64,000 bases of DNA from the NCBI GenBank assembly GCA_963771195.1, contig CAVYSS010000020.1:43486-107485 (forward strand). The letters run 5' to 3'. Shown here piece by piece: positions 9,967-59,400 of the stretch. The position numbers were made by a program, and so were the translations under genes. This DNA comes from an uncultured Acidobacteriota bacterium (lineage in GTDB: Bacteria > Acidobacteriota > Terriglobia > Terriglobales > Acidobacteriaceae). The notes below the pieces were generated by a model, which did no database searches, was not told the origin of the DNA, and was given only the letters and a program-made list of their open reading frames with translations. The stretch's first letter is position 1, and the number at the start of each line of letters is the position of its first letter.

Positions 9967-9983
9967 GGTTTGCGAGGTGAGTT

Positions 9984-10685: not shown

Positions 10686-10737
10686 CAGCGCTCTGTCCCT
10701 GTTTGCAGGTACCAAGGGCCTCCGCTGTCAGTCGGAA

Positions 10738-10770
10738 GAAGCCTCCCACGTCTGGGAGGCTTCGCTCTTT
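10738..10770 (+). terminator. Rho-independent terminator
   Basis: Perfect 11-bp stem GAAGCCTCCCA / TGGGAGGCTTC with 4-nt loop (10738-10763), followed by GCTCTTT. Confidence 0.7.
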
Positions 10771-11758: not shown

Positions 11759-12311
11759 GCCATATGCGTTCCCTGAGGGTATTCCGGGCGAATTACTGGC
11801 TAATCGGAAGTTACTCGATTTTTGTATTAGTCCCCGCGAACGCCGTTCGATCCATGAAATGCGCCGCTGCCGTTTCGCGGACGCCCGCTCATCGCGCGGA
11901 TCCTTCCCCTTCGGTCCCCTCAGGGTCAGGAGCCATGAACTTGGCACAGCTCCAAGAGCTGATTTTGTGATCGGTGAGAGGGCTGGCTGCCGCTTGGTGG
12001 TTGAATGAGCGGTGTCGCTTCCCACCCTGACCGCAAAAACGCGGTTAAGATGGGGCACCCGGCAAGGTGCACCCCTGGGCATAGAGCGCTCGTGGGTGGT
12101 TTCCTTCGCCCCTACGGGGCTCCCGATTCAATAACTGCCGATACCCCGGATTCTGGTCCTTGGCCGCCCAGGCGGCCACGGACTCCATCCGGGGCTAACT
12201 TCCTGCTACCCCTCCGGGGTGCTTTGCCGCTGCGCGGATGCGTGGCGGGTTCTCGCGCAGGGGCTAAAGTCCGGGCGTTGTGGTTGGCGAGTGGGCCGGG
12301 TGCCTGCACTC

Positions 12312-26654: not shown

Positions 26655-27011
26655 CTAACTTGCTGACTCGCTCTCCATCACCGCTCCAATGGCCCGCACC
26701 ATCGCCTGCCAGCGCTCATGGTCTGCGGCCAGTTGTTCCTTGCCCTTCTTCGTGATCTGGTAAAACTTGGCGCGCTGGCGGCTCTCGGTCATCTTCCATT
26801 CCGACTTGACCCACTTCTGCCGCTCCAGCCGGTGCAGCGCCGGATAGAGCGATCCGGTCTCCACCTGCAGCACTTCATTGGACTTCAGGCGAATCGACTG
26901 GGCGATGCCGTACCCGTGCATCGCTCCCCACTGCAGCGCCTGCAGAATGAGCATGTCCAGCGTTCCCTGCAGCAGCTCGATCCGGTTCTTGTAGCTTTCA
27001 GCTGAATTCAT
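26655..27011 (-). CDS. PadR-family transcriptional regulator
   Basis: LQGTLDMLILQAL..HGYGIAQSI......GSLYPALHRLERQKWV...KFYQITKKG is a canonical PadR winged helix. Sits immediately upstream of the ADOP permease. Confidence 0.93.
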   Translation of the reverse strand: MNSAESYKNRIELLQGTLDMLILQALQWGAMHGYGIAQSIRLKSNEVLQVETGSLYPALHRLERQKWVKSEWKMTESRQRAKFYQITKKGKEQLAADHERWQAMVRAIGAVMESESAS

Positions 27012-30561: not shown

Positions 30562-32313
30562 TCAATAGTACATTCCTTCGTGGGATGGCACGAGTGCGGT
30601 CACCTCTTGCTCCAATCGGTCCAACCGGTCAATCGCAGACTGCACTGCCGGAGCGCCTTCCTCTTTGACCTTGCGCGCCCGGTCGAGCGCATGTTCTGCA
30701 ATGCGGCTGATTTCGTGCAGCAGCTTGCGAATCTCCACCTCCAGGCGGTCGCGGCTTTCCTGGATGCGATTGAGAACATCGTTTTGTACGCGCGAGCTGT
30801 TCACTTCCAGAAGGTGCCGCAGGAATTCTCGAGCGTCGTTGGTGATGACTCTGCGTCCCCCCACAATCGGCAAAAAGACGTCGGCGAGCCAGCGCAGCGG
30901 CGATGGAGGCTGCGCCGTTCCGATGAAGTCCTCGAACACAAACCTCGAACGGATGCGGAAACCCTTTTCCGGATCGAGCGCGTGAGGCATCCGCGTCAAT
31001 TCGCTGAGCCCCGCATCGGCAAGTTTTCTTAAGAAGTTGTTTCCCATCTCCACAAAGCGCATGGCCACGGCGCGATATTGGCGCTCGCCCTCCTCCTGCT
31101 CGGGCTTGAGCCATGGCATTACCTTGTTGCGTGAGATCTCCTGAGCGAGGTGCATCACGCGGCGCCGGTAATGTGGGCCAAAACCGCGCCGTACCGTCGA
31201 CAGTTCCTTGTCAAACTCCGATTCCGATTCCTTCCACGCAGAACGAAAAAACTCTCGATGCCGCTCGAGGAATAAATCGGAGATTCGATGCTGCTCCGCC
31301 ATAAAGAGAAAGCCCAGTTCGCGCATGGAGCGCTCCGCCTCGCCGATTGTCTCCTTCATCAGCTGGATGCGCCGTTCGGATTCTTCGATGGGCCGCAAAA
31401 GCGCATCCCGATCCTCATTGATTACCGCAATCAGTTGTTCGCTCAGGCGCCGCAGGCCGCGGTCGCATGCGGCGCGCACAAGATTTCGGCTCGAGTCTTC
31501 CACCAGGAGGCGCAGGCTGGCCAGCAGTTTGTCCCAATCCCGCAAAGGGCCGCGCTCCTCCATCCGTTCCGCGGCACTCACTTCTAAAACCTCGCCAATG
31601 GGGCGATGGAGCCGTTTTTCCAGAATTCCGCGCGTGAACTTCGCCGCCGCTGCACGCTCGGGATCGGTGGTGCGGTCGGCTTTGTTGATCACCAGAATTA
31701 AGTCCTGAACCTGCCGGCCAACCGCTTCCACCAGCGCCAACTCCTCGCCGGCAATCGGCGGATCGGCGCCCACCACAACCAATGCCGCATCGATATGAGG
31801 AATGAAGGCCTGCGTAGTAGCCGTGTTTCCCGTAAACACCGAACCCAAACCGGGCGTGTCGACAAAACACATGCCGGAAGATAGCAACGGGCTGGGCACG
31901 AAGACCTCCGCGCCGTCCACGCCCTTTTTGTTTTCAGGATTAAACTCTTCGGTCACGTACTGTTTCAAGTCAGCCAGCGCAACTTCCCGCCAGGAGCCGT
32001 CCCGCATGCGCACGCGCGCGCTCAGCTCGTCGCCGAATCGAATCACCGTAGGCACGGCAGTGACCGGAATAAATCCGGTGGGAACCACCTGGTGGCCGAC
32101 CAGGGCATTCAGCAGAGTGGATTTGCCGCGCTTGAACTGACCCACACAGGCCACGTAGAAACGCCCTTCCGCAACTCGAGTGGCCAGTTCACGCGCTTCC
32201 TCGGCTACAGGCTCCGCCTCCAGTTCCTGGGCGAGATCGGCAAGGTGCAACAAACCGGAGGCGCCGTCAACGCTTACAGGTTTCTCAATTGGAGGGCTGT
32301 CATCCTCGTGCAT
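30562..32313 (-). CDS. Dynamin-family (bacterial dynamin-like) GTPase
   Basis: G1 GQFKRGKST, G3 DTPGLGS, G4 NKADR. About 350-aa helical stalk. No obvious TM paddle. Confidence 0.85.
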   Translation of the reverse strand: MHEDDSPPIEKPVSVDGASGLLHLADLAQELEAEPVAEEARELATRVAEGRFYVACVGQFKRGKSTLLNALVGHQVVPTGFIPVTAVPTVIRFGDELSARVRMRDGSWREVALADLKQYVTEEFNPENKKGVDGAEVFVPSPLLSSGMCFVDTPGLGSVFTGNTATTQAFIPHIDAALVVVGADPPIAGEELALVEAVGRQVQDLILVINKADRTTDPERAAAAKFTRGILEKRLHRPIGEVLEVSAAERMEERGPLRDWDKLLASLRLLVEDSSRNLVRAACDRGLRRLSEQLIAVINEDRDALLRPIEESERRIQLMKETIGEAERSMRELGFLFMAEQHRISDLFLERHREFFRSAWKESESEFDKELSTVRRGFGPHYRRRVMHLAQEISRNKVMPWLKPEQEEGERQYRAVAMRFVEMGNNFLRKLADAGLSELTRMPHALDPEKGFRIRSRFVFEDFIGTAQPPSPLRWLADVFLPIVGGRRVITNDAREFLRHLLEVNSSRVQNDVLNRIQESRDRLEVEIRKLLHEISRIAEHALDRARKVKEEGAPAVQSAIDRLDRLEQEVTALVPSHEGMYY

Positions 32314-32597
32314 TGTCGAGCTCCTGAACCCTCGCGTCCATCGATAAACGGACGACCAAACGCCTTCTCACAAACATAAAGGAAGTCGTCGACGCTTCTG
32401 CGCATCCGGGGCGCAGTGGCAACAGAAGATTGTCTTGGAAGAGCGAGATCAGGAGCACCTACCAAGAAAATCGTCCTTCTTCGTAGGAGTCATCTGCCCG
32501 AATGGGCGGTTATGGCGAACTCCAACGCCCGTGATTATTCTCGCACATCTTCGCCGGGTTATTCGTCGGCGGGAACGGGGACGATACCATTGAGCAG

Positions 32598-38438: not shown

Positions 38439-40323
38439 GTGATGCATCTCCGCGTATTGGATATCGCCATCATCGTGGCTTACCTGCTGAGCACGGTGTT
38501 CATCGGCTACTGGGTTTCCCACCGCGCCTCGCAGAACATACAGGACTATTTTCTGGGCGGCAACACGATGCCCTGGTACGTTCTGGGCGTATCCAATGCC
38601 TCCGGCATGTTCGATATCAGCGGCACCATGCTGCTGGTCTACTGGATGTTCGTCTACGGCCTGAAAAGCGTCTGGATCCCCTGGCTGTGGCCCACCTTCA
38701 ACCAGGTCTTCCTGATGGTCTACCTTTCGGCGTGGCTGCGCCGCTCCAACGTGATGACCGGCGCGGAGTGGATCAAGACCCGCTTCGGCAACGGCCGCGG
38801 CGCGCAGTTGTCCCACCTCATCGTGGTCATCTACGCCTTCGTCAGCATCATCGGATTCTTCAGCTACGGCTTCAAGGGCATCGGCAAGTTTGCCGCCACC
38901 TTCCTGCCCTGGCATCTCACGCCCAACCAGTACGCCCTGATTCTCGATCGCGCATCACCGCAATTTACGTCATCAAGGGCGGCATGTTCAGCGTGGTCAT
39001 CACCGAAGTGGTGCAGTTCTGCATTCTGTCCGTCGCCTCGTTTGCCGTCGGCATCATCGCCATGATGAAAGTGGCGCCGGAGACGCTGCACCGGATGGTG
39101 CCCGCCGGCTGGGACAACGTGTTCTTCGGCTGGCATCTCGGACCTGGACTGGTCAACGCTGATCCCCGCCGCCAGCGCCAAGATCGCCCAGGACGGCTAC
39201 GGCCTCTTCGGCTTCTTCGTCATGATGCTGCTCTTCAAGGGCGTGCTCATCAGCGCCGCCGGTCCGGCTCCCAACTACGACATGCAGCGCGTGCTCTCGT
39301 CGCAAGAATCCCGCGCGAAGCCTCCATGATGAGCGCGTGGGTAAACATCGTGCTCACCTTTCCCCGCTACTTCCTGATCACCGGGCTCACCGTGCTGGCC
39401 GCCGTGTTCTTCAGCGACAACATCCGCGCCATGGGCGCCAACATGGACTTCGAGCTGGTGCTTGCCCTATGCGCTCGGCCGGTTTGTGCCCGTGCGGGCT
39501 GCTGGGTTTCCTCATCGCCGGCCTGCTGGCCGCCTTCATGTCGAACTTCGCGGCCACCGTCAACGCCGCGCCGCCGTACTTCGTCAACGACATCTACAAG
39601 CGCTACATTCGCCCCGACGCGCCGCCCAAAACCTACGTTCGCCTTAGCTACATCAGCTCCTTTGCCGTTGTGGTGATCGGCGTCCTCATCGGATGGAACG
39701 TTACCTCCGTCAATTCCGTCGTGGTCTGGATCGTCTCCGGACTCTGGGGCGGCTACACCGCTTCCAACGTGCTCAAGTGGTATTGGTGGCGCTTTAACGG
39801 CTACGGCTACTTCTGGGGCATGGTCGCCGGCATCGCATCGTCGCTCTCGCTGCCGCTTTTCATTGCTAAGGTGCCGCTTGTTCAGCACCTGCTCGCCACC
39901 TATTCCATCAACGTGGACGTCTCCATCGTTTTCCCGCTGGTGCTCATCCTCTCGATCATCGGTTGCCTTGCCGGAACCCTGCTCACCAAGCCGGAAGACG
40001 AAGCCGTCCTGAAGGATTTCTACCGGCGGGTGCGGCCATGGGGCCTCTGGGGGCCCGTCCTCCAGAAGGTGCTGGCAGAAGATCCCGGCTTCAAGCGCAA
40101 CGCCGACTTCGCGCGCGACATGTTCAATATCGTCGTCGGAATTGTGTGGCAAATCGCCCTCGTGGTGTTGCCCCTGTACGTCGTCATTCAAGAATTTGAG
40201 CGCGCCGCCATCGCTTTATTCGTGGTCCTGGCCGCGTCGGCGATTCTCAAGTTCACTTGGTTCGACCACCTGGCGGTCCGCGAGGTCGAAACCGACAAGG
40301 CTGCATCTGCAGCAGGATCCTGA
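38439..40323 (+). pseudogene. Sodium:solute symporter family transporter, disrupted by at least 5 frameshifts
   Basis: SSF-like protein sequence can be followed only by switching frames. Frame 0 runs to about 38945 (..TPNQYALIL). Frame 2 follows (ITAIYVIKGGMFSVVITEVVQF..GWHL). Frame 0 resumes at about 39140 (DLDWSTLIPAASAKIAQDGYGLFGFFVMMLLFKGVLISAAGPAPNYDMQRVLSS). Frame 2 resumes at about 39303 (PREASMMSAWVNIVLTFPRYF..NMDFELVL). Frame 0 resumes at about 39460 (PYALGRFVPV). Frame 1 runs from about 39490 (GLLGFLIAGLLAAFMSNF... to the end). Confidence 0.85.
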
Positions 40324-40565
40324 AGCCGGATCTTGCCCGAAGGGTTGTAAGCGAGTTGGGCACGGCGGAGCTGCATGAGGTGAATACAGCCTTTTGCCGT
40401 GCCGAGAGTGCGTACTGAAGCCGCGCTGCCCGGGTGACGTACAAGTTCGGCGCAATCGTCGTGTCAGGTGGCTTTGTGATAGCTCAGCGCAGAAGAGACT
40501 GCTGACTTATCAGGGTTCTCCTTCCGTGATCCTGTGATCACGATCACCTACAAGAGCCACTGCTG

Positions 40566-41363
40566 GTGACGGTTCCGTTCGGAGTCTCGCGTGAGTTCAC
40601 GGAAAGACTCTCCGCAGGGTTCTCCTTTGTTCCTGCGCTCTCGATGCTGCAGGTCATACCGGCGCCATTTTCCCCGCCGGTGATGGCGGGCAGCACGATG
40701 CCCTACTACCTCTCGGCGGGAAACAACGCACCCGCTTCGGGCATGGGTGCAAGTGCGGGAGTGCACTATGCCGCAGGGCCGATCAGCATCGGTGTTTCCT
40801 GGCGGTCACCGGTCTGGTTTCAAAAGTTCACCTGGAACCGCGAAGACCTGACCGGTGTATCCCATACGATGCACTTTCACATGGACCTGCCCCAGGTCGT
40901 ATCCGTGGGAGCCGGAATTGTCGCCCGCAAAGGCACACTGATTGGTGTCGATTTGCGCTGGTTTGACTACGCCAATACCGCCGGATTCGATAAGGTCGGA
41001 TACAACCCCGATGGTTCCCTCGCCGGTTTTGGATGGCGCAACATCTGGGCGGTTGGCGGCGGTATTCAGCAAAAGGTCGGTTCCTCAACCAAGCTGATGC
41101 TCGGCTACAACTACTCCGGAAATCCGATCCCGGCTGAGTACACGTTCTTCAACACGCCGGCTCCTGCCATCGTGCAGCATCACGTCTCCGGCGGCATTAT
41201 CCAGCACATGCGTGGGTGGGACGCCATGGCGACGTACTATCACGCCTTCCAGAATTCGATCACCGGCCCGTGGATTTCCGCTAAGGGGCCCATCCCGGGT
41301 ACCAGCGTAACCAGCAAAATGTCGGAAAACTCCGTAACGATCGGTTTCGGAAAGAGCTTTTAG
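40566..41363 (+). pseudogene. FadL/TodX-like outer-membrane beta-barrel, N-terminally truncated fragment
   Basis: Alternating beta-strand pattern and terminal ...SVTIGFGKSF (C-terminal Phe) typical of OMP transport proteins. Only 265 aa, no signal peptide, and an in-frame stop at 40527 just upstream. Confidence 0.5.
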
Positions 41364-41482
41364 TAAGCAGCGGGCGAACTGGGGAAGAGGTGCGAGGGTT
41401 CGCCCTCGTTGCTCCCGCTCTCGATTCTGTCCGCGAATGTTGCCTTGCAATCGGGCGGTGGAGAAGGTTGCCAATCGGGGAG

Positions 41483-42052
41483 ATGCTGGAAATGACGCCT
41501 AACGCTCGAACGGCAGACTTCGACGAACAACCAGACCGCGTCCTGCACGGAGCGGAAAGGCATGAGCCGGTGATTGCTGCGCGTGGATTGCTGTACAGTC
41601 AGGGCGATCTGCGACGTTCGCTTTCGCCGGCGTCGGTTTTCCGCCCCGCGTCGCGGCGCCTGTTCTTGAAAACGGGAATTACCTCTCTCGGTGCTCTCGC
41701 GCTCTGGATCATGGACCGGATAGCCTGGGATGCAGAGTCGATTCCTGAAAACTCGGAGACGACGCTCACCGTGTCCTGGAGTGCGGCGCAGGCGATTCAC
41801 TTTTACGACCCGATGATCGTCGTCAACCGTACAGACGCGGTCGCTGTCTTTTCATCCCAATGCCCGCACTTGGGCTGCCGGGTCAACCGAACCGAGGGCA
41901 GGGAGCTCGTCTGCCCCTGTCACGGTTCGCGATTCGACCTGGGCGGAAACGTTGTGCACGGTCCGGCAGCGCGGGGATTACGTTCTTTGCCGTTTGCGCT
42001 CGACCGTGCCAAAGCCGCGCTCCGCGTCACGCTGGGGAGCAGCCAGACGTGA
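41483..42052 (+). CDS. Rieske [2Fe-2S] protein with Tat-like signal anchor
   Basis: SRRLFLKTGITSLGALALW twin-Arg-like anchor. Cluster boxes CPHLGC and CPCHGS. Start uncertain (ATG 41390/41483/41492). Stop overlaps the cytochrome b start (GTGA). Confidence 0.88.
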   Translation: MLEMTPNARTADFDEQPDRVLHGAERHEPVIAARGLLYSQGDLRRSLSPASVFRPASRRLFLKTGITSLGALALWIMDRIAWDAESIPENSETTLTVSWSAAQAIHFYDPMIVVNRTDAVAVFSSQCPHLGCRVNRTEGRELVCPCHGSRFDLGGNVVHGPAARGLRSLPFALDRAKAALRVTLGSSQT

Positions 42053-43560
42053 AGCGCACGAATCCCAGCCTTTGGCGACGCATTCCGGGGATGGGAATGC
42101 TGGCCCTTGCTGCCTTTGTCCTGTGTGCCGCAACGGGCATCATGCTCGTACCCGCGTATCGCCCGTCGACGGCCCTCGATTCGCTCGCCCTTCTGTCGCT
42201 AAAAAACCCCGCGGGAGTCTTCGCGCGCAGTCTGCACTACTGGTCGGCGCAGGCGTTCCTGGTCCTCATGCTGGCACACGTTGTGGATCATCTGCTGCGC
42301 CACAGCGAAAGGCTCGTGCGCTTTGGGGTTTGGCTGCGTCTGGTGCTGACGATCCCGGTCATCGCCGCCATCTTGCTTTCGGGCTTTCTGCTGCGTGCGG
42401 ATGCAGCGGCCCAGCAGGCGCTTCCCGTGTTGAGGACACTGCTCGGCCTGATCCCGTTCGCCGGCGCGGCCATGCAACGGCTGCTCACCGGCACGGGTGC
42501 CGACCTCTCTACTATCTATCTTCACCACGCCTGTACCGCCACTCTGGTCATCTGGCTCGTCACTGTGGAACACACTCGGCGCATCCTGCCAGCGGTACAG
42601 TCGCTCGCGTGCATCGCGGTCCCGACCCTCCTACTTTCATTTTTTCTGGTACCCGGTCTGGAATGGCGCACGGCAGCGGTCGAAAAGGGACCATGGTACC
42701 TGGTCGGCCTGCAGGAGTTTCTGCACTGGCTGCCTCGCCCTCAGCTCGCTGTCTGGATTGGCGGCCTGGTTCTGGTGTTGCTGATCTTGTTGCCGGGATT
42801 CCCATCCCACATCCACCTCGCCCCTCGATACGCACTCGGCACCGTCGTGCTGTTCTATGTTGCGCTCACCCTGATCGGACTCACCTTGCGCGGCGATGGC
42901 TGGCGATGGACATCCCCCGCCACGGTTCTGGCCGGCGAAGCTGACTTTCTTTCTTACCGCGCCTACATCCCTCCCGCCAGAGGATTCGTGGAGACCAGCG
43001 TCCCCCTGATTAACGGCCAGCGCGAAGGATGCCTATCGTGCCACGGAAAGATGACCGGATTCGTCGCCGCCCATGATCCCGCAACGATCGGCTGTGCTGC
43101 CTGCCATTTCGGCAATCCATGGACGCTGGACAAGAAGCTCGCCCACGCCGGCATGACTCTCATGCCTGGCGATCTCTCGGTCGTTGCGCAGACCTGTGGC
43201 GCCCCCAACTGCCATACCGACCAGGCGCAGCGCGTGCACGCCTCGGTGATGAACACGATGAGCGGCGTCGTGGCGATAGACAAGTTTGCCTTTGGTGAAA
43301 ACACCGAACTCGACGCGCGCTACGACCTGGCGGCTTTGAAACATACTGCTGCCGATACCCATCTGCGCAACCTCTGTGCGTCCTGTCATCTCGGCCAGGG
43401 CAAGAGCCATCCCGGCCCCATCAACGAGACGGACCGCGGCGGGGGCTGCTCGGCTTGCCATCTCCGGTACGATCCCTCTGCCGCTGACGAATTGCGGGCA
43501 CGCCCGGCATCCGCCGCGCCTTTGCATCATCCGGATATTTCTGTCCATGTTCCGAAGTAG
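42049..43560 (+). CDS. Cytochrome b (b6/subunit IV-like) fused to multihaem cytochrome c, N-terminal part up to an in-frame TAG
   Basis: GTG 42049. Haem-b His pairs in LHYWSAQAFLVLMLAHVVDH and IYLHHACTATLVIWLVTVEH. PEWY-like GPWYLVGLQEFLHW. Then CLSCH, CAACH, CGAPNCH (CX4CH), CASCH, CSACH. Ends at TAG 43558-43560. Confidence 0.85.
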   Translation: MKRTNPSLWRRIPGMGMLALAAFVLCAATGIMLVPAYRPSTALDSLALLSLKNPAGVFARSLHYWSAQAFLVLMLAHVVDHLLRHSERLVRFGVWLRLVLTIPVIAAILLSGFLLRADAAAQQALPVLRTLLGLIPFAGAAMQRLLTGTGADLSTIYLHHACTATLVIWLVTVEHTRRILPAVQSLACIAVPTLLLSFFLVPGLEWRTAAVEKGPWYLVGLQEFLHWLPRPQLAVWIGGLVLVLLILLPGFPSHIHLAPRYALGTVVLFYVALTLIGLTLRGDGWRWTSPATVLAGEADFLSYRAYIPPARGFVETSVPLINGQREGCLSCHGKMTGFVAAHDPATIGCAACHFGNPWTLDKKLAHAGMTLMPGDLSVVAQTCGAPNCHTDQAQRVHASVMNTMSGVVAIDKFAFGENTELDARYDLAALKHTAADTHLRNLCASCHLGQGKSHPGPINETDRGGGCSACHLRYDPSAADELRARPASAAPLHHPDISVHVPK

Positions 43561-43740
43561 GCCTGCTTCGGCTGCCACAGCCGGTCCGGACGCATTGCAA
43601 CCAGCTATGAGGGCTGGCACGAGACGCTAATAGACGAAAAGGCGGCGCAGGCGTCCCCGGGATGGCCCGCGCAGTTTCGCGTCCTCGGGGATGGACGCGT
43701 CTTCGAAAAACACGCTGCCGACATTCATGCGGATAAGGGT

Positions 43741-44808
43741 ATGACGTGTATCGACTGCCATCAGGCATCCGAAGCGATGGGCGATGGCGCGACCCATGCC
43801 CATGAACGCGATGCCATCAAAATCGCCTGCGTGGATTGCCATGCCGTGCGCAAGACCGCAGCGAAAGAGTATGGCGAGCTCGACTCCGAGACGCAGCAAA
43901 TCGTCGCGATGCGCCGGTTGAACGAACCCGGCCGCAAGTTCGTGGTCAGCGAATCCGGAGCCGCGGCCTATCCAAATATGTTTCTCGACCATGGCGGACG
44001 TCCCGTGCTCTCCGTGATGGACTCCACAAAAGTCCTGAAGCCGAAACCGATGGCCGAAGCGTGCACCGCAGCCATGCATCAGAGGCTGGAGTGTTCCGCC
44101 TGCCATACCCCATGGACTCCGCAGTGCATTTCCTGCCACACCTCCTTCAACCGGAGTACACAGGGCTGGGATTATCTCGCGGGCAAGTATGTTGATGGCG
44201 AATGGCAGGAAGAGCCGGCTAACTATCTGAGCGACGCGCCCGCACTTGGCATCGAGCGCATCTCCTCGTCCGACGGTAAATCAGCAGAACGCATCACCAC
44301 CTTCATCCCCGGAATGATTCTGCACCTGGACATCCCTGTCGGTGCTCGAAAAAACCAACCTGAATTCCGTCGCCTTTTTGCTCCCGCCTCGGCGCACACG
44401 ACAGCGACCCGGGCCCGGGACTGCCGATCCTGCCATACCAATCCAGCAGCCCTCGGCTACGGACGAGGCCAACTCAAATATGTCGTCACGGGTCGAACGG
44501 CTGCGTGGCGGTTCACCCCGCAATTTGCCAGCAGCCCGGAAGATGGTCTGCCGTCCGATGCCTGGATCGGCTTCATGCAGGAGCCCAGCGGACGTTCGGC
44601 CACACGCAAAGGGGCCCGCCCGTTCTCGCTCGATGAGCAGCAAAGGATCCTCCAAGTCGGCGCCTGTCTTGCTTGTCACAACGAGAAGGACCGCCGCGTT
44701 GCCCGGGTCTTCGCGAATTTCAAAGACTATCGCTCAACCCTCAGCCCGCAATGCTTCCTCCCCGCGTGGCCGGATCGATCTCCTCTGCTTGCAGGACCAA
44801 CACAATGA
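43741..44808 (+). CDS. Multihaem cytochrome c segment (same frame as 42049..43560; probably its continuation from 43561)
   Basis: CIDCH, CVDCH, CSACH, CISCH, CRSCH, CLACH. No signal peptide at ATG 43741. The 180 nt between the TAG and this ATG are open in the same frame and encode a further CFGCH (43564-43578). Confidence 0.8.
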   Translation: MTCIDCHQASEAMGDGATHAHERDAIKIACVDCHAVRKTAAKEYGELDSETQQIVAMRRLNEPGRKFVVSESGAAAYPNMFLDHGGRPVLSVMDSTKVLKPKPMAEACTAAMHQRLECSACHTPWTPQCISCHTSFNRSTQGWDYLAGKYVDGEWQEEPANYLSDAPALGIERISSSDGKSAERITTFIPGMILHLDIPVGARKNQPEFRRLFAPASAHTTATRARDCRSCHTNPAALGYGRGQLKYVVTGRTAAWRFTPQFASSPEDGLPSDAWIGFMQEPSGRSATRKGARPFSLDEQQRILQVGACLACHNEKDRRVARVFANFKDYRSTLSPQCFLPAWPDRSPLLAGPTQ

Positions 44809-44860
44809 CATCTCGAATCAATTCCGTAAGTACCACATCGAGAGAAAGGCAACCGTCCCG

Positions 44861-47050
44861 ATGATGAACCTTTCCCGTCGACGCTTCCTGAAGATCGGTG
44901 CCGGAACCATGGCCGCAGCCGGCTCGCTGGATGCCTCGCTTCGTGTACTGGCCGGGTCCGGCAAGCATGCTGAGCGCGGCACTCGCGCGGTGCCGACGTT
45001 CTGCAATCTCTGCTTCTGGGAGTGCGGCGCCATCGCTACTGTTCGCGACGGCAAGTTATGGAAGATTGAAGGCAATCCGCTCGATCCCCTGTCCCGCGGC
45101 CGCCTTTGCCCCCGCGGCACTGGCGGAATCGGTGCGCATTTCGATCGCGACCGCCTTCGTTCTCCGCTCCTCCGTGTGAGCAAGCGCGGCGAGGAAAAGT
45201 GGAAGGCGGTCACCTGGGATGAGGCGCTCAGCTTCGTTGCGGACAAGATGCAGAAGATCAAGGCGCAATATGGACCGGAGTCTTTCGCAGCGTTCATCCA
45301 CGGCCTGGGCGGACGGTTCTTCAAACACACGCTTCGCGCTTATGGAACAGAGAACATTGCGGCTCCCTCGTTTGCGCAGTGTCGTGGACCCCGCGATGTC
45401 GGCTTTACGCTCACCTTCGGTGACGGTGTGGGTTCCCCGGAGAGAACCGATATCGCAAACGCCCAGTGCATCGTTTTGATCGGATCTCACATTGGCGAGA
45501 ACATGCACAACACTCAGGTGCAGGAATTTGCAGAGGCTGTAGGAAACGGCGCAAGCATCATCGTGGTCGACCCGCGCTTCTCCGTTGCCGCCAGCAAGGC
45601 CAAATTTTATCTTCCCGTAAAACCCGGCACCGATTTGGCACTGCTGCTCGCCTGGATGAATGTCATCGTCAGCGAAAATCTTTACGACAAGGATTACGTC
45701 GATCAGTACGGTTTCGGCTTCGAGCGGTTCACGGCAGAGATTCAGGCCTTCACGCCGGAATGGGCATACCCGGAAACCGGCATCGATCCCGACCTGATTC
45801 GCGCAACTGCCCGCGAGATGGCGCGCTATCGCCCCGCAACGCTCATCCATCCCGGACGCCACTCCAGCTGGTATGGCGACGACGCCCAGCGCAGTCGCGC
45901 CATCGCCCTGCTGAACGCACTGATGGGCAGTTGGGGGCGCAAAGGTGGCCTTTATATGCCTGCGGAGATGGAAATTCCGGGCTATCCCGTTCCGGCGTAT
46001 CCGAAGTCGAAGAGGCCGCCGGTCGACAATCCCAACAACAAATATCCATTCGCGGATGAAGCGATCAGCACCGGAATCCGCGAAGCCACCTTGACCGGCG
46101 CGCCCTATCCGATCAAAGGCTGGCTGGTCTACGCGACCAATCTCCTCTATTCTCTGCCCAATCAGGCCGAGACAATTCGAGCGATTCAGAATCTCGATCT
46201 GTTCGTCGTTGTCGATACGATTCCGAGCGAGATCGCCTGCTGGGCGGATGTGGTTTTACCTGAATCGATCTATCTGGAACGTTACGACGAGCTACACTCC
46301 GAACCTTTCCGGCAATCCTTTATCGCGCTGCGCCAGCCTGTCGTCGATGCGCCCGGAGACCAGAAGCCAAACTGGTGGATCGCCAAAACGCTCGCGGAAA
46401 AGCTGGGACTAAGCGCGTACTACCCGTGGAACAACATCGGGGAGTATCTTGCGGCGCGCCTCAAAGCGGCCGGCTATAGCTTCGAAGACCTGAAGCGCGA
46501 CGGCGTTCTGCTCGGCCCGCAACGGCCCATATACTTCGAAGACGGAGCGCCGGCTGTGTTCGACACGCCGTCAAAGAAGATCGAGTTTTATTCGCTGCAA
46601 CTGCAGAAAGCCGGCTTCGATCCCGTTCCCAAATACACGCCTCCAGACCCGCCGCCGGAAGGTTCCTATCGGCTGCTGTTCGGCCGCGCCCCGATGCACT
46701 CCTTCAGCCGTACCCAGACCAATCCTCTGCTCGTGGACCTGCAGAGCGAGAACTCGGTTTGGGTCAATAAGGGAGAGGCGCAAAGACTCGGACTGAAGAG
46801 CGGGGACTATATCCGTCTTCGCAATCTCGACGGTCAGGTAAGCAACAGGATTCTTGTCAAGGCTACGGAACGCATTCGTCCGGATTGCGTGTACATGACC
46901 CATGGCTGGGGACATACATCGAAGGAGCTTCACAGCGCCTTCGGCAAAGGCGCGAGCGATTCGCAGCTGATTACGCGCTATAAGACGGACCCATTAATGG
47001 GCGGCACAGGTATGAACGTGAATTTTGTCACGCTCGAGACGGAGGTCTGA
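44861..47050 (+). CDS. Tat-exported molybdopterin (bis-MGD) oxidoreductase catalytic subunit, Psr/Phs/Ttr-like
   Basis: MMNLSRRRFLKIGAGTMAAAGS Tat signal. N-terminal 4Fe-4S box CNLCFWEC...CPRG. Molybdopterin oxidoreductase and C-terminal dinucleotide-binding blocks (..VWVNKGEAQRLGLKSGDYIRL.., ..VYMTHGWGH..). Confidence 0.9.
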   Translation: MMNLSRRRFLKIGAGTMAAAGSLDASLRVLAGSGKHAERGTRAVPTFCNLCFWECGAIATVRDGKLWKIEGNPLDPLSRGRLCPRGTGGIGAHFDRDRLRSPLLRVSKRGEEKWKAVTWDEALSFVADKMQKIKAQYGPESFAAFIHGLGGRFFKHTLRAYGTENIAAPSFAQCRGPRDVGFTLTFGDGVGSPERTDIANAQCIVLIGSHIGENMHNTQVQEFAEAVGNGASIIVVDPRFSVAASKAKFYLPVKPGTDLALLLAWMNVIVSENLYDKDYVDQYGFGFERFTAEIQAFTPEWAYPETGIDPDLIRATAREMARYRPATLIHPGRHSSWYGDDAQRSRAIALLNALMGSWGRKGGLYMPAEMEIPGYPVPAYPKSKRPPVDNPNNKYPFADEAISTGIREATLTGAPYPIKGWLVYATNLLYSLPNQAETIRAIQNLDLFVVVDTIPSEIACWADVVLPESIYLERYDELHSEPFRQSFIALRQPVVDAPGDQKPNWWIAKTLAEKLGLSAYYPWNNIGEYLAARLKAAGYSFEDLKRDGVLLGPQRPIYFEDGAPAVFDTPSKKIEFYSLQLQKAGFDPVPKYTPPDPPPEGSYRLLFGRAPMHSFSRTQTNPLLVDLQSENSVWVNKGEAQRLGLKSGDYIRLRNLDGQVSNRILVKATERIRPDCVYMTHGWGHTSKELHSAFGKGASDSQLITRYKTDPLMGGTGMNVNFVTLETEV

Positions 47051-47052
47051 AC

Positions 47053-47592
47053 ATGTACCGTTTCGCCATGGTTATCGATACGCGGAGGTGCGTGGGCTGC
47101 CACGATTGCGTGGTGGCCTGCAAGACTGAAAACGGCGTTCCGGAAGGCTACAGCCGCGACTGGATCGCGGAAGAGGTCCACGGCGCTTTTCCCACTCTGC
47201 AGATGGAGATCCGTTCGGAACGATGCAATCACTGCGACAATCCTCCGTGCGTCTCCTGCTGCCCGACCGGAGCAAGTCATATCCATGAGCAGGGCGGCGT
47301 GGTGCTGGTCGACCACGACAAATGTATTGGCTGCAAAGCCTGCATCGCGGCATGCCCTTATGACGCACGCTTCATTCATCCGGACGGCTATGTCGACAAA
47401 TGTACCTTCTGCATCCACCGCGTCGAGCGCGGCCTTGATCCGGCCTGCGTTTCCGTCCGCCCCACGCACTGCATGCACTTCGGAGATATCGACGATCCGC
47501 AGTCCGAAGTGAGCCAGTTACTTAACTCGCGCCCGTATCACGCACTGTTGCCGGAAGCGGGAACCAAACCATGCATCTTCTATCTGACTTAG
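47053..47592 (+). CDS. Four-cluster 4Fe-4S ferredoxin subunit (PsrB/DmsB-like)
   Basis: CVGCHDCVVAC, CNHCDNPPCVSCCP, CIGCKACIAACP, CTFC...ACVSVRP. The last cluster has Arg where CP is expected (see findings). Confidence 0.92.
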   Translation: MYRFAMVIDTRRCVGCHDCVVACKTENGVPEGYSRDWIAEEVHGAFPTLQMEIRSERCNHCDNPPCVSCCPTGASHIHEQGGVVLVDHDKCIGCKACIAACPYDARFIHPDGYVDKCTFCIHRVERGLDPACVSVRPTHCMHFGDIDDPQSEVSQLLNSRPYHALLPEAGTKPCIFYLT

Positions 47593-47598
47593 GCAAAC

Positions 47599-48651
47599 AT
47601 GAACACACTTACTGAATTATCTTTGTCTCGACACAATCCGCTGGTAGATCCGACCCTTGATGTCTGGCAATGGCAAATCCCGATCTACCTCTTTCTGGGC
47701 GGACTGGTTGCCGGGTTGATGATCATCGCCGGCGTACGGCTTATCACAATTCGCCCCACACAGCGCGAGGCCCTTGTGTGTTGCACCATCGGACCCCTGG
47801 CCGGTCTGGCATTCCTCAGTCTCGGTATGTTCGTGCTGTTTCTCGACCTGTCCCACAAGCTCTATGTCTGGCGACTCTATACCACATTGCAGATTACTTC
47901 GCCGATGTCCTGGGGCTCGTGGATTCTGCTTTTGGTCTATCCCGCCCTGGCCGCGAATGCGCTGGCTCATCTCCCGGAGGCTGTTCCAGCACTGGCGAAG
48001 CGCTTTCCTGTTTTGACTACATGGAGCGACTTCATCCTGTCCCGCACACGTCTGGTGGTGGCTATTGGCATCGCCAATGTCCTGGTAGGAATTGGCCTCG
48101 GTATTTATACCGGCATCCTTTTGGGTACGCTTGGCGCGCGCCCGCTCTGGAACAGCGCCCTGCTTGGCCCGCTCTTCCTGTTCTCCGGTCTCTCAACAGC
48201 AGCTGCGCTGCTGCATGGGATTCTGGTTCTCTCTTCTTCCGGGGAAGAGCTGCCAGGGTTCGCCGACTTCCTGCTCTCCTCTCTCACGCGGCTGGCTCAG
48301 GCGCGGCCGCTCGATCAAGGGGCCGCCCCGGTCCTGGCGGGCGCTGACAACAGCTTCCTCACCATTGAACTGGGCATCCTCAGTCTGTTCCTGATCGGCC
48401 AGCTTACATCGACCGCAGTTCATCAGCAAGCCGCCTCGCTTCTTCTCAGCGGCCCCTATGCAGCTGTCTTCTGGATCTTCGTAATCTCTCTGGGCATCGT
48501 TTTGCCCCTCATCCTGCAAACGCTCGAGTTGCAGAATTCCATTCGCCACACGCTGGCGCCGGCTGTTCTTGTCATTTTCGGCGGACTTGCACTTCGCTTC
48601 ATTCTTGTCTACGCAGGCCAGCAAAGCCATTGGTTTCATGCAGTGAATTAA
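47599..48651 (+). CDS. NrfD/PsrC-family integral membrane quinol-interacting anchor
   Basis: 350 aa with about 8-9 TM helices. N-terminal WQWQIPIYLFLGGLVAG motif typical of NrfD-like subunits. Immediately follows the FeS subunit. Confidence 0.88.
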   Translation: MNTLTELSLSRHNPLVDPTLDVWQWQIPIYLFLGGLVAGLMIIAGVRLITIRPTQREALVCCTIGPLAGLAFLSLGMFVLFLDLSHKLYVWRLYTTLQITSPMSWGSWILLLVYPALAANALAHLPEAVPALAKRFPVLTTWSDFILSRTRLVVAIGIANVLVGIGLGIYTGILLGTLGARPLWNSALLGPLFLFSGLSTAAALLHGILVLSSSGEELPGFADFLLSSLTRLAQARPLDQGAAPVLAGADNSFLTIELGILSLFLIGQLTSTAVHQQAASLLLSGPYAAVFWIFVISLGIVLPLILQTLELQNSIRHTLAPAVLVIFGGLALRFILVYAGQQSHWFHAVN

Positions 48652-48665
48652 CGGAGGAAGAATTC

Positions 48666-49196
48666 ATGAATTCGGAACAACAAACTCCCCAGCCCTACTG
48701 GAATTCTTATTGGGCTGGATTTGGACTTGGCCTCGTGTTACTGGCCTCCTTCGTCATTATGGGACGCGGACTGGGAGCGTCAGGCGCTTTCACGACCGTC
48801 GTCGCCGCTGCGGTGCACCAGATTGCCCCGGCGCATGCCGAAAATAGTCCCTTCTACTCTGAGTATCTCGGCGACGGCTCGCGCAGCCCTCTCAAGGACT
48901 GGCTGGTATTCGAAGTTCTGGGAGTCTTTGTCGGCGGCTTTCTCTCCGGTGTCCTCGCCAATCGGTTGAAGCTCACGGTGGAACAAGGCCCTCGCAGCAC
49001 GACGGTCCGCCGCCTTGCTTTTGCATTTGTGGGCGGAGGCCTGATGGGTATTGGCGCAAAGATCGCTCTCGGCTGCACCAGCGGTCAGGCGCTTACTGGC
49101 GGCGCCCTGCTCAACGTCGGCAGCTGGGTCTTTATGTGGTGTGTATTCGGCGGCGCCTACGCGGTGGCTTACTTCTTCAGAAAGCAATGGATCTGA
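48666..49196 (+). CDS. YeeE/YedE-family sulfur-compound transport protein (half-size)
   Basis: ATG after GGAGGAAG. GRGLGASGAFT and ALGCTSGQALTGG motifs characteristic of YeeE/YedE. Confidence 0.8.
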   Translation: MNSEQQTPQPYWNSYWAGFGLGLVLLASFVIMGRGLGASGAFTTVVAAAVHQIAPAHAENSPFYSEYLGDGSRSPLKDWLVFEVLGVFVGGFLSGVLANRLKLTVEQGPRSTTVRRLAFAFVGGGLMGIGAKIALGCTSGQALTGGALLNVGSWVFMWCVFGGAYAVAYFFRKQWI

Positions 49197-49197
49197 T

Positions 49198-50460
49198 ATG
49201 AATGCTCCCTTCTACAAATTCGGACTCTTCGGCGACGAGGCTAGCTTCGTCATCGCCTTCCTCATCGGCATTGGCTTTGGGTTCTTCCTTGAACGGGCCG
49301 GCTTCGGCAGCGCACGCAAGCTCGCATCGCAGTTCTATCTCTGCGACCTGAGCGTTCTGAAGGTGATGTTTACCGCGATCATCACGGCAATGACCGGTCT
49401 CTATGTGTTTTCGCGCCTGGGCATGCTGGATCTGTCGCTCGTCTACTTAGTTCCTACTTTCCTCGTACCTCAAATCGTCGGAGGCCTTCTGCTCGGTGTC
49501 GGCTTTGTTATCGGCGGCTATTGCCCTGGCACTTCGTGTGTCTCCGCCGCTACCGGCCGCATCGATGGCATGGTCTACCTTTTGGGAATGGTCGCGGGGC
49601 TCCTCGGTTTCGGCGAAGTCTACCCTCTGATTGTCGGTTTCGCTCATTCCACCTCGATGGGGCAGATCACTCTCCCGAAGCTCTTCGACCTCCCCTATGG
49701 GCTTCTGGTTTTTGCAGCCGTGCTGATGGCTCTGGGAGCATTTGCGGCCGGTGAGTGGGCAGAGAAAAGGTTTGGAGGCAAGCTGCCCGATCCCGAAGGA
49801 TCGATCATCGGCGGAAGCCGTAGGCTCACGCCCGTTCGCGCGCTTGCGTTGAGCCTGGCGGTGATCGGACTCTTTGCCGCCTTCGCGGGCGACCCCTACC
49901 GCGGCCATCACGCGACCATCGGCACCAGGGATCTCCAGATGCGCGTCGGGAAAGGAGCGGATCTGATTGAGCCGGTGCAACTCGCAGACTGGATCATCCA
50001 GGACCGAAATGATTTTCGCCTCGTCGACTTGCGCCAGCAGAAGGACTACAACGCCTATCACATTCCCGCGGCAGAGAATTTCCCTCTGGCTTCCCTGACA
50101 CCGGACTTTGCTGCACACAACGAAAAAATCCTCCTCTGCTCAGATGACAGCCTGGAAGCGGCGAAAGCTTGGTTTCTACTGGATGCACAGGGATTCAAAT
50201 CGGTCTATGTCCTGAGCGGTGGCATGCAGGGCTGGAAAGATTTCGTGCTCTTTCCGATTAAGCCGCAAGGAACCACCGATTCAGCCTTCGAACGACAGGC
50301 ACAGGTAGCGAAGTTCTTTGGCGGCGCACCGAAGGCAGCCAATACCCAAGCCTCGACCGCCGCGATGCCTGCACTTCCCAGGGTGGCGCCGCCTTCTGTA
50401 CCCGCTGCACCGCCGACAACGAACGCAGCGCCGCCTAGGAAAAAGAAAGAAGGCTGCTGA
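49198..50460 (+). CDS. YeeE/YedE-family membrane protein fused to a C-terminal rhodanese-like domain
   Basis: ERAGFGSARK and GGYCPGTSCVSAATG YeeE motifs. Rhodanese-like FRLVDLRQQKDYNAYHIPAAENFPL...ILLCSDDSLEAAKAWFLLDAQGFKSVYVLSGGMQGW with an atypical active-site loop (CSDDSLE). Pro/Ala-rich tail. Confidence 0.8.
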   Translation: MNAPFYKFGLFGDEASFVIAFLIGIGFGFFLERAGFGSARKLASQFYLCDLSVLKVMFTAIITAMTGLYVFSRLGMLDLSLVYLVPTFLVPQIVGGLLLGVGFVIGGYCPGTSCVSAATGRIDGMVYLLGMVAGLLGFGEVYPLIVGFAHSTSMGQITLPKLFDLPYGLLVFAAVLMALGAFAAGEWAEKRFGGKLPDPEGSIIGGSRRLTPVRALALSLAVIGLFAAFAGDPYRGHHATIGTRDLQMRVGKGADLIEPVQLADWIIQDRNDFRLVDLRQQKDYNAYHIPAAENFPLASLTPDFAAHNEKILLCSDDSLEAAKAWFLLDAQGFKSVYVLSGGMQGWKDFVLFPIKPQGTTDSAFERQAQVAKFFGGAPKAANTQASTAAMPALPRVAPPSVPAAPPTTNAAPPRKKKEGC

Positions 50461-50522
50461 GAAAATTCTGCTCCCGGTTTCCTTGGCGCGGAGGCAGCGA
50501 AAGCAAGGTTGAGAGGCGAACC

Positions 50523-50987
50523 ATGATCATCCGCCACCTGTTTATCTCTCCCGGTCATAACTTCTTCGGTCACCATGGCCAGGCCGCGGGAAAAAATACC
50601 CTCTGCACCATGAACGAGATTGAGTGCGTTGCCGGGCACGGCGTCAGCGGGGATCGTTTTTACGATTACGGCGACAACTACAAAGGACAAATCACATTCA
50701 TAGCCAGCGAAGTATTCGAGGACGTCTGCCGGCGCTTGGGGGTGCAACTGAAATCCCCGGGCGTTGCCCGCCGCAATGTCGTCACGGCCGGAATCGATCT
50801 GAACTCCCTCATCGGCAAGACCTTCACCATTCAGGATGTGGAGTTCGAAGGGGTCTGCGAATGCAAGCCCTGCTACTGGATGGACTCCGCTATCGCACCG
50901 GGTGCGGAGAAAGCATTGCAGGGACGCGGCGGATTGCGCGCGAGAATCCTCTCCCGCGGCAGGCTCAGAGTCGGGGTTGCCCTGTGA
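50523..50987 (+). CDS. MOSC-domain protein
   Basis: GDRF...ITFIASEVFEDVC...ARRNVVTAGIDLNSLIGKTFTI.DVEFEGV.ECKPC resembles the MOSC beta-barrel with its conserved Cys. Confidence 0.75.
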   Translation: MIIRHLFISPGHNFFGHHGQAAGKNTLCTMNEIECVAGHGVSGDRFYDYGDNYKGQITFIASEVFEDVCRRLGVQLKSPGVARRNVVTAGIDLNSLIGKTFTIQDVEFEGVCECKPCYWMDSAIAPGAEKALQGRGGLRARILSRGRLRVGVAL

Positions 50988-56427: not shown

Positions 56428-59400
56428 TCATTCGACGATCAGGGTGAGGGCGGTGGTCTGAGTGGCCGAGCCCGCTGTTGCCGCAACGGTCAGGTTGTAG
56501 GTCTGGGGCTGCTGTTCGCCGCCGCCTCCACCTTTACTGCCGCCTCCGCCGCATCCGTTGAGAGTGGTCAGGCCAGCCACGCCGGCGATGCCCAGGAGCA
56601 GCACAAGCAGTGCGCGATGTCCCTCGCGCAGCCTGCGCAGACCCATGAGCGGAAGCAGGAGCAGGCCGAAGACAAGAGGCATACGGCTGGAACGCCCGGG
56701 CCGGTCGGGAACGGCAGCGGACGACTGCGACGGGACGGTAATGGAGAGCGTGACGGTGGTGGCGGGACCGCCGGCGGGAACGCTGTCGGGGTTAAAGATG
56801 GAGGTGGCGCCGACAGGCTGGCCGGTGACGGAGAGGGAAACAGGATTATCTCCAGGCGGAGTTACGGTCAGCTTATAGGTGGCGGTACCGCCGGGAGAGA
56901 TGGTGGCAGAGGTGGATCCGCCGGAGGGCGTGGAGACTCCGAACGAGGAGACGTTGATGGCCACTGTGTTGCTGAATGCATCGGCGAAGTTCGTGTCGCC
57001 GGTGTACTGCGCCGACATAGCGTACTTGCCTGCAGTCGTAAGCGCAGAAGTGGTGTAGGTTGCTATTCCTTTCGAGAGAGTGGCGGCGCCGAGCTGGGTG
57101 GTTCCGTTGTAAAAGGTGACGGAACCGGTGGGCGTACCTGCGGGCGAGGAGACGGTTGCGGTGAGCGTGATGGCCTCAGAAACGTCTGCGGTCGTGGCTG
57201 AGGAGGTGAGCGTCGCGGTGGGCGTTGTCTTGTTGACCGCAATGTTCACGGAATCTGTGACGGAAGTGTAATCGGCGGTATCGGAAGGTGTGAAGGTTAC
57301 AGAAAGTTTCTGCGAGCCGTAAGGGAGGACTGTGCCGGCGGCGGGCGAGTAGGCGAAGGTTCCGGGCACGCTGGCGGTGGCATCGAGCTGCGTGGAGCTG
57401 AGCTTGGTTCCGTAAAGAATGGGGGCGGGCGTGGCCCAGGTGATGGTGGGGATGGTCTGGATGAAATAGGCGGCGGAGCCGACCGCGCTTTGTCCGTAGC
57501 CGGAGGAAATGGCGATGGCATTGATCGTCTCGGTCTTGCTGACATCGAAAGCGCTGTTGTATTGGGTTGAGCTTGTGCTTGGTGCGGAGCCATCGGTGGT
57601 GTAGTAGATGGCGGCGTTGGGTGCGGTGTCAGAGATGGCCACGGACTTTGAGCCGGCGTAGGTTCCGGCGGGCGGGTCGAAGGTGGGGGCGGGAGCGGGA
57701 GCGTTGAAGGTGATCTTGCGGATGCCCCCGCACCCGTCTGAGTAAAGGAGGTTGGCCTGTGCATCCAGGAGGACGCCAGATTGTGCGCAGACCACGGTCA
57801 TGGACGCCGGTCCACCACCGAAGTTGGACCCGGAATAATCGATGCCAGCAGTAGCGGAGATGAATCCGGTCTTGGCATCGACCTTGCGGATCTCATAATC
57901 ATTGGCGATAAAGATGTTTCCGTCTCCATCGACTGCGATGCCATTTGGGCTCACTTCAGCGTCGGTAGCGAGTTGGCCGTCGCCGCTGAAGCCGTCGAGT
58001 CCGTTTCCTACGACCGTGTTGATGATGCCGGTCTCAGCATTCACTTCGCGGACGCGGTTGTTTCCGTAGTCGGCGATGTAGAGATTGCCGGCTCCGTCGA
58101 ATGCCAGCCCTTGCGGTTGAGACAGCGCGGCAGAGGTTGCCAGACCGCCGTCGCCGAAACCGGAAGGAACGAAGCTGCCAGCGACGATGTTAATAATGCC
58201 CGTTGAGGCGTTAACTTCCCACACAATGTTATTGCCATCGGCGATATAGAGATTGGAATTGTTATCGAGGGCGACACTGGATGGGAACGGAATAAACGCG
58301 GACGTGGCAGGCTCTCCGTTGCAGTAGTTCGCGCAGCCGCCACTATTCTGCTCGTTGCCGGCGTAGAGGACGATGTTTCCATTGCTGGCCAGCACTTCGC
58401 GAACGGCATTGTTGTTAGTGTCCGCAATGAAGATGTTGCCGTTGCGATCGACTGCGACGGCGGAAGCACCAGAGAGGGTTGCGGCAGTTGCAGGTCCATT
58501 GTCTCCCGTGCGCCCAGAATTGCCGGAACCGGCGACGATGGTGATGATTCCCGAGGAGTCGACTTTCCAGATCACTTCGTTGTATGGATCAGCAATAAAC
58601 AGGTTGCCACTTGAATCCATCGCAATTCCGTCCCGGTAATTAATGCCAACCGCGGTGGCTGGGCCACCCGCGCCAGAGAGTCCCAGGGTTCCACCCCCTG
58701 CGACCGTGGAGACGAGCGCGGTTGGGGGCACCGTGTAGGTGTAGGCGGACGTGACCACTTTGCTGGGCGTATGGCCGGGTGCGATGGCCTGCGCGGCCAC
58801 GATCGCCGATCCAGTCACGTTGATCGGTCCGTGATAGCCGTCGATGCCCAGATAAATCACGATACTGCTGGCGTTGTACGAGTCGGGTGGGTTGGTGGCG
58901 ATGTAGAGGTAGACGGCGGAATTGGGTGTCGACTCGCTGACGCTGAGCGTTCGCGGGCTGGAGTAGGATCCCGCAGAGAGGCTGAAGGCCGGGTCGGCTG
59001 TTGCCGTGGAGGGCGGGGTACCGATCGCAGTCAGTTCGTCGACGCCCTCAGAGGCATCCGCGAAATAGAGGTTTCCTGCGCCGTCGAAAGAAAAGCCCTG
59101 GCCAAAGCAAACGTTGGAAGAAAGAGCAGCTCCGCCATCGGCTACAAATGCGAAACATCCCTGGGCGTTACCCGCGACCGTGGAGATGAAGCCGGTGGTG
59201 GCGTCCACCTTGCGGAATACCCAATTGAATTCGTCGCCGATGTAGACGTTGCCTTTGCTGTCGACCGCGAGGCTATTCGGCCCCGACAGTTCTGCGCTTG
59301 TGGCCGGGCCGCCATCCCCGGAATATCCCTGGACGCCTGTCTTGCCCGCGAAAAGACCGAAGTTTGCGGTGCTGCGAGTCACTTTCCAGATCGAGCCATC

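Follow-up and report, generated by a model that had tools for sequence, protein, structure and literature searches.

Reading frame and domain architecture of the interrupted gene

The 64,000-nucleotide stretch analysed here, hereafter called the window, comes from an uncultured member of the Acidobacteriaceae (GenBank assembly GCA_963771195.1, contig CAVYSS010000020.1, positions 43,486 to 107,485) and carries an operon of putative respiratory genes. One of these genes, which encodes a cytochrome b fused to a multihaem c-type cytochrome, is interrupted on the forward strand by an in-frame TAG at 43558–43560 (codon 504). In the frame opening at GTG 42049, this TAG is the sole internal stop, and the next one is the TGA at 44806–44808. 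The interval 42049–44808 comprises 919 sense positions when the TAG is counted, and the translation around the stop reads HHPDISVHVPK*ACFGCHSRSGR, with the haem site CFGCH (43564–43578) lying two codons 3′ of the TAG. The original prediction, which was made from the sequence alone, had placed the TAG in the cytochrome frame, directly followed by CFGCH and then by six more CXXCH motifs, and had proposed a 919-residue read-through product. Each of these sequence statements is borne out, because the frame is otherwise free of stops up to the terminal TGA.

The upstream half (42049–43557, forward strand, 503 codons) encodes a cytochrome b/b6-like membrane domain with approximately seven hydrophobic helices, followed by haem sites 1–5 (CLSCH, CAACH, CGAPNCH, CASCH, and CSACH). 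The downstream half (43561–44808, forward strand, 415 codons and the TGA) contains haem sites 6–12 (CFGCH, CIDCH, CVDCH, CSACH, CISCH, CRSCH, and CLACH). If the TAG is ignored, and only then, the product has 12 haem motifs, consisting of 11 CXXCH and one CX4CH, with five before the TAG and seven after it. The earliest possible start in the downstream half is ATG 43741, as no in-frame ATG, GTG, or TTG lies between it and the TAG. The open reading frame (ORF) from this ATG encodes 355 residues with six CXXCH motifs and leaves out the CFGCH site; the annotated pair of ORFs has sizes of 503 or 489 residues and 355 or 343 residues. The probability of a 415-codon open frame arising after a stop at this base composition is approximately 5e-6 by our estimate, and the open frame after the TAG is not a product of chance. 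No hydrophobic segment was found in residues 505–919, where the maximum 19-residue Kyte-Doolittle mean is 1.04, compared with 2.2–2.6 for the N-terminal helices. Therefore, the product of ATG 43741 would lack any export signal, whether signal peptide or membrane anchor, as had been proposed beforehand.

Profile searches assign both halves to known families. PF00033 (Cytochrome b/b6) matches residues 6–161 with 39.6 bits against a gathering threshold of 27.2, cytochrome b6 chains in the PDB match the upstream half at E = 4e-8, and the ExtP profile matches it at E = 5.9e-16. The ExtM profile (NCBIfam NF040943) is matched by the upstream half at profile positions 16–180 (59.4 bits) and by the downstream half at positions 209–590 (176.7 bits, E = 6e-52). 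Neither half reaches the ExtM equivalog cutoff of 800 bits and, with scores so far below it, the haem domain of the fusion is a distant homologue of ExtM, not an equivalog. The two halves match consecutive stretches of one profile, and all of the 120 best homologues (described below) have a sense codon at the TAG column, both of which uphold the claim that the TAG splits one gene. Intact cytochrome b::dodecahaem fusions (919 residues, encoded beside genes for a Rieske protein and PsrABC) form a family found widely in Acidobacteriota and also in metagenome-assembled genomes (MAGs) of Ignavibacteria and Bacteroidota. No solved structure was found for the haem domain of this family, and the intact family holds more interest than the stop codon itself.

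In Geobacter sulfurreducens, the 12-haem cytochrome ExtM (GSU2935), the cytochrome b ExtP, and the Rieske protein ExtO are separate proteins, which have been proposed to constitute a bc-type module (PMC5877670). In a comparison based on the extHIJKLMNOPQS cluster and the NCBIfam models NF040943 and NF040969, the window and the Geobacter cluster have in common the Rieske, cytochrome b, and 12-haem c-type cytochrome modules, as well as a rhodanese encoded nearby. In the window, however, the b and 12-haem modules are fused in one 919-residue protein, the neighbouring genes are PsrABC-like instead of the porin-cytochrome genes of Geobacter, and the host is an acidobacterium. The separation of ExtP and ExtM, together with the two ORFs annotated by gene callers, would suit a natural split, in which the ORFs are separate functional genes like the cytochrome b and multihaem subunits of Geobacter. 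However, the break falls between haem sites 5 and 6 inside the single ExtM-like domain, away from the b/c domain boundary, the downstream ORF lacks CFGCH as well as any signal peptide or anchor, and none of the best 120 homologues is split at this site. A natural split was rejected because the break lies inside one domain, and we consider it extremely improbable. The same features of the downstream half, which is signal-less, anchor-less, and short of one haem site, support the earlier suggestion that it is non-functional on its own.

Orthologous codons and constraint downstream of the stop

A search with the read-through sequence yielded 175 proteins at E ≤ 1e-10, and the best 120 were aligned at the TAG column. 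Almost all of these 120 are single proteins of approximately 895–945 residues. The residue at the TAG column is Gln in 44, Glu in 28, Asp in 19, and Asn in 13, with a few others including Thr, Ser, Val, and Lys, and no stop was found among them. The two closest homologues have Glu at this position; the amino acid identity to P0002 and P0001 (905 residues) is 84–86%, and the best match among the species-representative genomes, which do not include that of the window itself, shows 83% amino acid identity. In the DNA, L003 (the palsa_291 MAG), which is the closest of these genomes, has CCGAAG GAG GCC where the window has CCGAAG TAG GCC, and GAG in an otherwise identical context is also found in L022 and L015. 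The Logan contig L015 is particularly informative, as its protein P0154, which belongs to the 90% cluster of the window fragments, is an intact 919-residue protein with 93.6% DNA identity and Glu at this site. A sense codon also occupies the TAG site at all 10 related genome loci and, as AAA GAA in a differing DNA context, in the ENA contig L025, and a scan of metagenomes with a degenerate pattern around the site retrieved nine contigs, all with GAG or CAG and none with a further TAG allele.

From these orthologue columns and the GAG of the nearest relatives, the ancestral codon can be inferred to be GAG, and the change is a Glu-to-stop G>T transversion at 43558. The orthologues are uninterrupted and their sense codon is one substitution away from TAG, as is expected of a nonsense-mutation pseudogene. 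The original prediction had asked which residue orthologues have here, and the answer is Glu or Gln, with GAG in the nearest relatives. It had also considered that orthologues might end at this position and be followed by a separate downstream gene; this is the case for none of the 120 homologues, and the 10 genome loci and nine metagenome contigs all have sense codons. The intact Acidobacteriota orthologues (Terracidiphilus and Acidobacteriaceae MAGs; P0154 on L015, P0001, and L003) match the window gene in length, in domain order, and in having the 12 haem motifs, and they lie in the same operon. They differ in having GAG, GAA, or CAG for the TAG of the window and a full-length gene for the outer-membrane protein (OMP) that heads the operon, except for the L015 contig, which starts inside the OMP gene.

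The sequence downstream of the stop shows no sign of decay. In pairwise comparisons with L003, L013, and L004, the downstream half has dN/dS values of 0.14–0.17, equal to those of the upstream half and of pairs of intact orthologues. Of the downstream columns with at least 97% conservation among homologues, the window keeps 85 of 85, and intact proteins used as controls show 0–1 mismatches. Because there is no downstream decay, the stop would be very recent, or not real, or read through. Relaxed constraint, as expected of a pseudogene, is not seen here, and a pseudogene would have to stem from a very recent event.

Mutation, sequencing error, and translation of the TAG

We consider it probable, with moderate confidence, that the TAG is a real and recent GAG>TAG loss-of-function mutation. 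The T would then be biological rather than a read-level artefact, and no useful full-length protein would be made. The normal gene product would be a 919-residue respiratory protein, whose cytochrome b domain would exchange electrons with the quinone pool together with the adjacent Rieske protein, and is fused to a putative periplasmic ExtM-type 12-haem c-type cytochrome "wire". In this strain, one G>T transversion would have turned codon 504 from GAG (Glu) into TAG. Translation would halt just past haem site 5, leaving a 503-residue stump and losing seven of the 12 haem sites, and the remaining 415 codons could be restarted only at ATG 43741, giving a cytoplasmic, haem-less product without an export signal. 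Because the attachment of c-type haem takes place in the periplasm, this product could not receive haem. A stump and a signal-less remainder would together constitute a loss-of-function allele, and the allele would be young because nothing downstream has decayed.

Two other assemblies carry the TAG. One is L001, a Logan contig from run ERR10755947 that shows 100% identity to the window over 9219 bp (40015–49233), TAG included, and was built with a different assembler from that of the window assembly. A 31-mer enters a Logan assembly only if the run contains it two or more times (PMC12424806). The ENA contig L014 (ERZ25039473 contig_148177) has an L015-like backbone that differs from the window by 5–6%, and its TAG is located in a tract of approximately 1 kb (42812–43811 in window coordinates) that differs from the window by only 1.4%. 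Because L001 and L014 carry the TAG too, the T at 43558 is not an artefact of one assembler.

Positions 1–3450 of L014 are a mosaic with two homopolymer deletions (CCC>CC and TTT>TT), and its cytochrome copy has two frameshifts and a 5′ break. To the left of window position 42412, which falls within the cytochrome b domain, L014 shows no homology to the window and continues with 950 nt of unrelated sequence up to its end. This contig is a recombinant in which the gene has decayed or else a chimeric assembly. A further Logan contig (L002, run ERR12035941) is nearly identical to the window over 45464–48292, with a sole difference, GGGG>GGG at 48241, which would frameshift the NrfD gene and is probably a read or assembly error. 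Because L002 comes from another run, the same strain is present in more than one run.

Several observations weigh against a genuine mutation. L001 may derive from the same reads as the window. The tract of L014 contains 29 window-type sites, 10 L015-type sites, and no private ones, a pattern no less consistent with a chimeric consensus than with a recombinant, and L014 may thus be no independent observation. Frame-breaking indels occur elsewhere in the window. The sodium:solute symporter (SSF) gene (38442–40323, forward strand), whose segments are 80–88% identical to homologues, has at least five frameshifts in approximately 550 bp (near 38965, 39140, 39305–39313, 39461, and 39495), and those near 39140, 39461, and 39495 were modelled as one extra base outside long homopolymers. 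A duplicated MacB_PCD/FtsX ("ADOP"-type) ABC permease gene (23918–26627, reverse strand), downstream of a PadR regulator gene (26658–27011), has one frameshift near 25388, apparently caused by one extra G (cgc gta g cgg tcg). Homopolymer deletions, and in L025 a PsrA gene called as four pieces, are found among related ENA contigs whose names follow the Flye style, and the assemblies may therefore be long-read and indel-prone. Furthermore, neither relaxed constraint nor further lesions were found after the TAG, which fits a sequencing error as well as it fits a very recent mutation.

These points bear on the alternative that the organism has GAG and an intact 919-residue gene, the T being an error of long-read base calling or polishing, residual or systematic, that was carried into the deposited assembly. 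Such an error would leave the downstream half perfectly preserved, as it is, and would be in keeping with the at least six frame-breaking single-base indels in two other window genes of conserved protein sequence. Many long ENA contigs carry N-terminal pieces of the symporter gene in the form of short ORFs, a recurrence that suggests systematic errors of assembly rather than decay. Homopolymer deletions in L014 and L002 and the four-piece PsrA of L025 point the same way, and a systematic error would recur in L001 if this contig was built from the same reads. However, errors elsewhere in these assemblies take the form of indels, whereas the stop results from a G>T transversion. The 9.2-kb k-mer assembly L001, for which the T-containing 31-mers had to be seen at least twice, shows no mismatch to the window, and the codon in L015, where the local context is almost identical, is GAG. 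Among the window-specific substitutions, whose spectrum is ordinary, GAGG>TAGG does not recur (5 kb of aligned sequence, with only 12 conserved motif sites). Finally, L025, which belongs to the same ERZ accession series as L014, has the sense codon, albeit in its differing DNA context. On balance, we regard a sequencing or consensus error as possible but rather unlikely.

A third explanation is functional readthrough or suppression of the TAG by a suppressor tRNA or a near-cognate Gln or Glu tRNA, so that the full-length cytochrome would still be made, perhaps at a lower or regulated level. The absence of downstream decay agrees with this explanation, as does the occurrence of the TAG on two haplotype backgrounds, since the window-like tract of approximately 1 kb in L014 could be a recombination import. 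The position tolerates Gln, Glu, Asp, Asn, Thr, Ser, Val, and Lys, and any inserted residue would probably be accepted. On the other hand, a stop is present in none of the 120 proteins, 10 genome loci, and nine metagenome contigs, the flanks are identical to those of GAG-bearing relatives and contain no dedicated signal, and the L014 copy is broken by the two frameshifts and the 5′ break as well. No tRNA gene of any type was found within the 64-kb window. Functional readthrough is therefore judged very improbable. More improbable still is a real TAG that has spread between strains by homologous recombination and is kept via low-level UAG readthrough or a natural suppressor tRNA. If this were true, soil Acidobacteriota would be using a stop codon to throttle the expression of a respiratory protein that is costly to make.

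The use of TAG in the window also speaks against readthrough and against reassignment. The genes for glycosyl hydrolase family 9 (GH9), the OMP, PsrB, PadR, and dihydroxy-acid dehydratase (IlvD) all terminate in TAG, with neighbouring genes ending at the orthologous ends; PsrB, for instance, has exactly the length of its orthologues. TAG is a normal terminator in this genome. A scan of the window for in-frame stops flanked by long open frames revealed no other TAG-split gene, as the candidates were same-frame adjacent genes (PadR/permease, IlvD/amidohydrolase, PsrB/NrfD, and GH9/symporter) or antisense ORFs. Genome-wide reassignment of TAG was rejected on the grounds that TAG ends neighbouring genes and that the window contains no second TAG-interrupted gene.

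Selenocysteine is encoded by UGA and replaces Cys, and pyrrolysine is encoded by UAG at conserved positions and requires pyl genes. Selenocysteine recoding was rejected because the codon here is UAG rather than UGA and the orthologous residues are Glu, Gln, Asp, and Asn. Pyrrolysine insertion or another programmed UAG recoding was rejected because the position is variable and no stop is found in the 120 proteins, 10 genome loci, and nine metagenome contigs. Recoding is thus unlikely. There is a precedent for a recoded stop in a cytochrome gene, as extKL of Geobacter contains a selenocysteine UGA (PMC5877670). The interrupted gene resembles such genes in having an in-frame stop within a multihaem cytochrome gene that is called as two ORFs, but it differs from them in the UAG codon, in the variable orthologous residue (Glu, Gln, Asp, or Asn), and in the lack of a stop in any orthologue. 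With ordinary nonsense pseudogenes and "internal stop" artefacts of MAGs, the gene has in common a single in-frame stop one substitution away from the orthologous sense codon, uninterrupted counterparts everywhere else, and other broken genes on the contig, and nothing distinguishes it from them except the recurrence of the allele in the mosaic contig L014. None of the well-supported readings is new; this is a broken gene of a known sort, or possibly a sequencing error, and not a new genetic recoding. The original prediction had named a recent nonsense mutation, a base-call error, and readthrough, which proved to be the right set, now narrowed mainly to the G>T mutation versus a sequencing error.

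For annotation, 42049–44808 should be treated as one disrupted gene; its two ORFs should be counted neither as two cytochromes nor as a multihaem protein of the cytoplasm without a signal. A genuine mutation would probably mean that this strain no longer has the Rieske/cytochrome b/12-haem branch of a respiratory module for sulphur or selenium compounds while the PsrABC-like enzyme is retained, which bears on metabolic inference from the MAG. If the T is an error, long-read MAGs can hold substitution errors in addition to indels.

Surrounding operon and other features of the window

The operon contains, in order, genes for the OMP, the Rieske protein, the fusion, PsrA, a 4Fe-4S protein, NrfD/PsrC, two transporters, and a MOSC-domain protein, and this gene order is syntenic in related Acidobacteriota MAGs. 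Synteny with relatives begins at approximately 40547–40560, directly past the symporter gene, and with L003, L004, and L013 it extends to approximately 50970. The first gene (40560–41363, forward strand) encodes a 5′-truncated FadL/Toluene_X-like OMP, which corresponds to residues 179–445 of 445 and is missing the signal peptide. A tblastn search with the 445-residue OMP of L026 gave a sole window match at 40560–41360, covering query residues 179–445. L013, L025, and L026 encode all 445 residues, whereas the window gene is without the first 178 codons. The truncation junction is found in the window and in L001 alike, and the truncation is a lineage-specific rearrangement or deletion, confirmed by L001. 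Given this truncation at the synteny breakpoint in both sequences, the operon was already damaged in this lineage, and this shared lesion favours a genuine mutation at 43558. In L003, the OMP gene shifts frame once, at 7326–7339.

The Rieske [2Fe-2S] protein (41492–42052, forward strand; PF00355, E = 4.6e-12) is called as 186 residues in L001, L015, L025, and L026, and the stop codon of its gene overlaps the start of the cytochrome gene. Downstream of the cytochrome gene lies an intact gene for a PsrA/PhsA-type molybdopterin oxidoreductase catalytic subunit with a twin-arginine signal (44861–47050, forward strand; PF00384, PF04879, and PF01568). The PhsA profile matches its product at E = 6e-148, which is under the cutoff of that profile, and the members of its cluster are named thiosulfate/polysulfide reductase chain A. 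In L025 (ERZ25039590 contig_52314, 5757–7944), PsrA is called as four pieces. The next two genes encode a PsrB/NrfC-like 4Fe-4S electron-transfer subunit with an ordinary TAG stop (47053–47592, forward strand; PF13247, E = 1.6e-24) and an intact NrfD/PsrC-type membrane quinol-interacting subunit (47599–48651, forward strand; PF03916, E = 4e-36), whose lengths of 179 and 350 residues, respectively, are those of their cluster members. They are followed by two YeeE/YedE-like sulphur-transport membrane proteins, the second of which is fused to a rhodanese (48666–50460, forward strand; PF04143 and PF00581; called in L001 and L014), and by a MOSC-domain protein (50517–50987, forward strand; PF03473, E = 1.6e-10), whose gene is the last syntenic one. 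Judging from the family names alone, the operon likely encodes a quinone-linked electron-transfer branch through which a sulphur or selenium compound is reduced or oxidized.

Three further features of the window lie outside the operon. A fluoride riboswitch (RF01734, 49 bits, E = 1.3e-10) at 32477–32538 on the reverse strand is located 164 nt upstream of a gene for a 583-residue dynamin-family GTPase (30562–32313, reverse strand). Because a fluoride riboswitch is usually followed by a crcB or CLC-F type fluoride exporter gene, this GTPase is an unusual partner. The region 8000–12000 has a G+C content of 0.53–0.55, compared with approximately 0.60–0.65 elsewhere, and few long coding-like ORFs, and it may be foreign or non-coding DNA. 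Finally, a gene at 56428–60549 on the reverse strand encodes a 1373-residue NHL/teneurin-repeat protein with beta-propeller, Ig-like, and chitobiase C-terminal domains.

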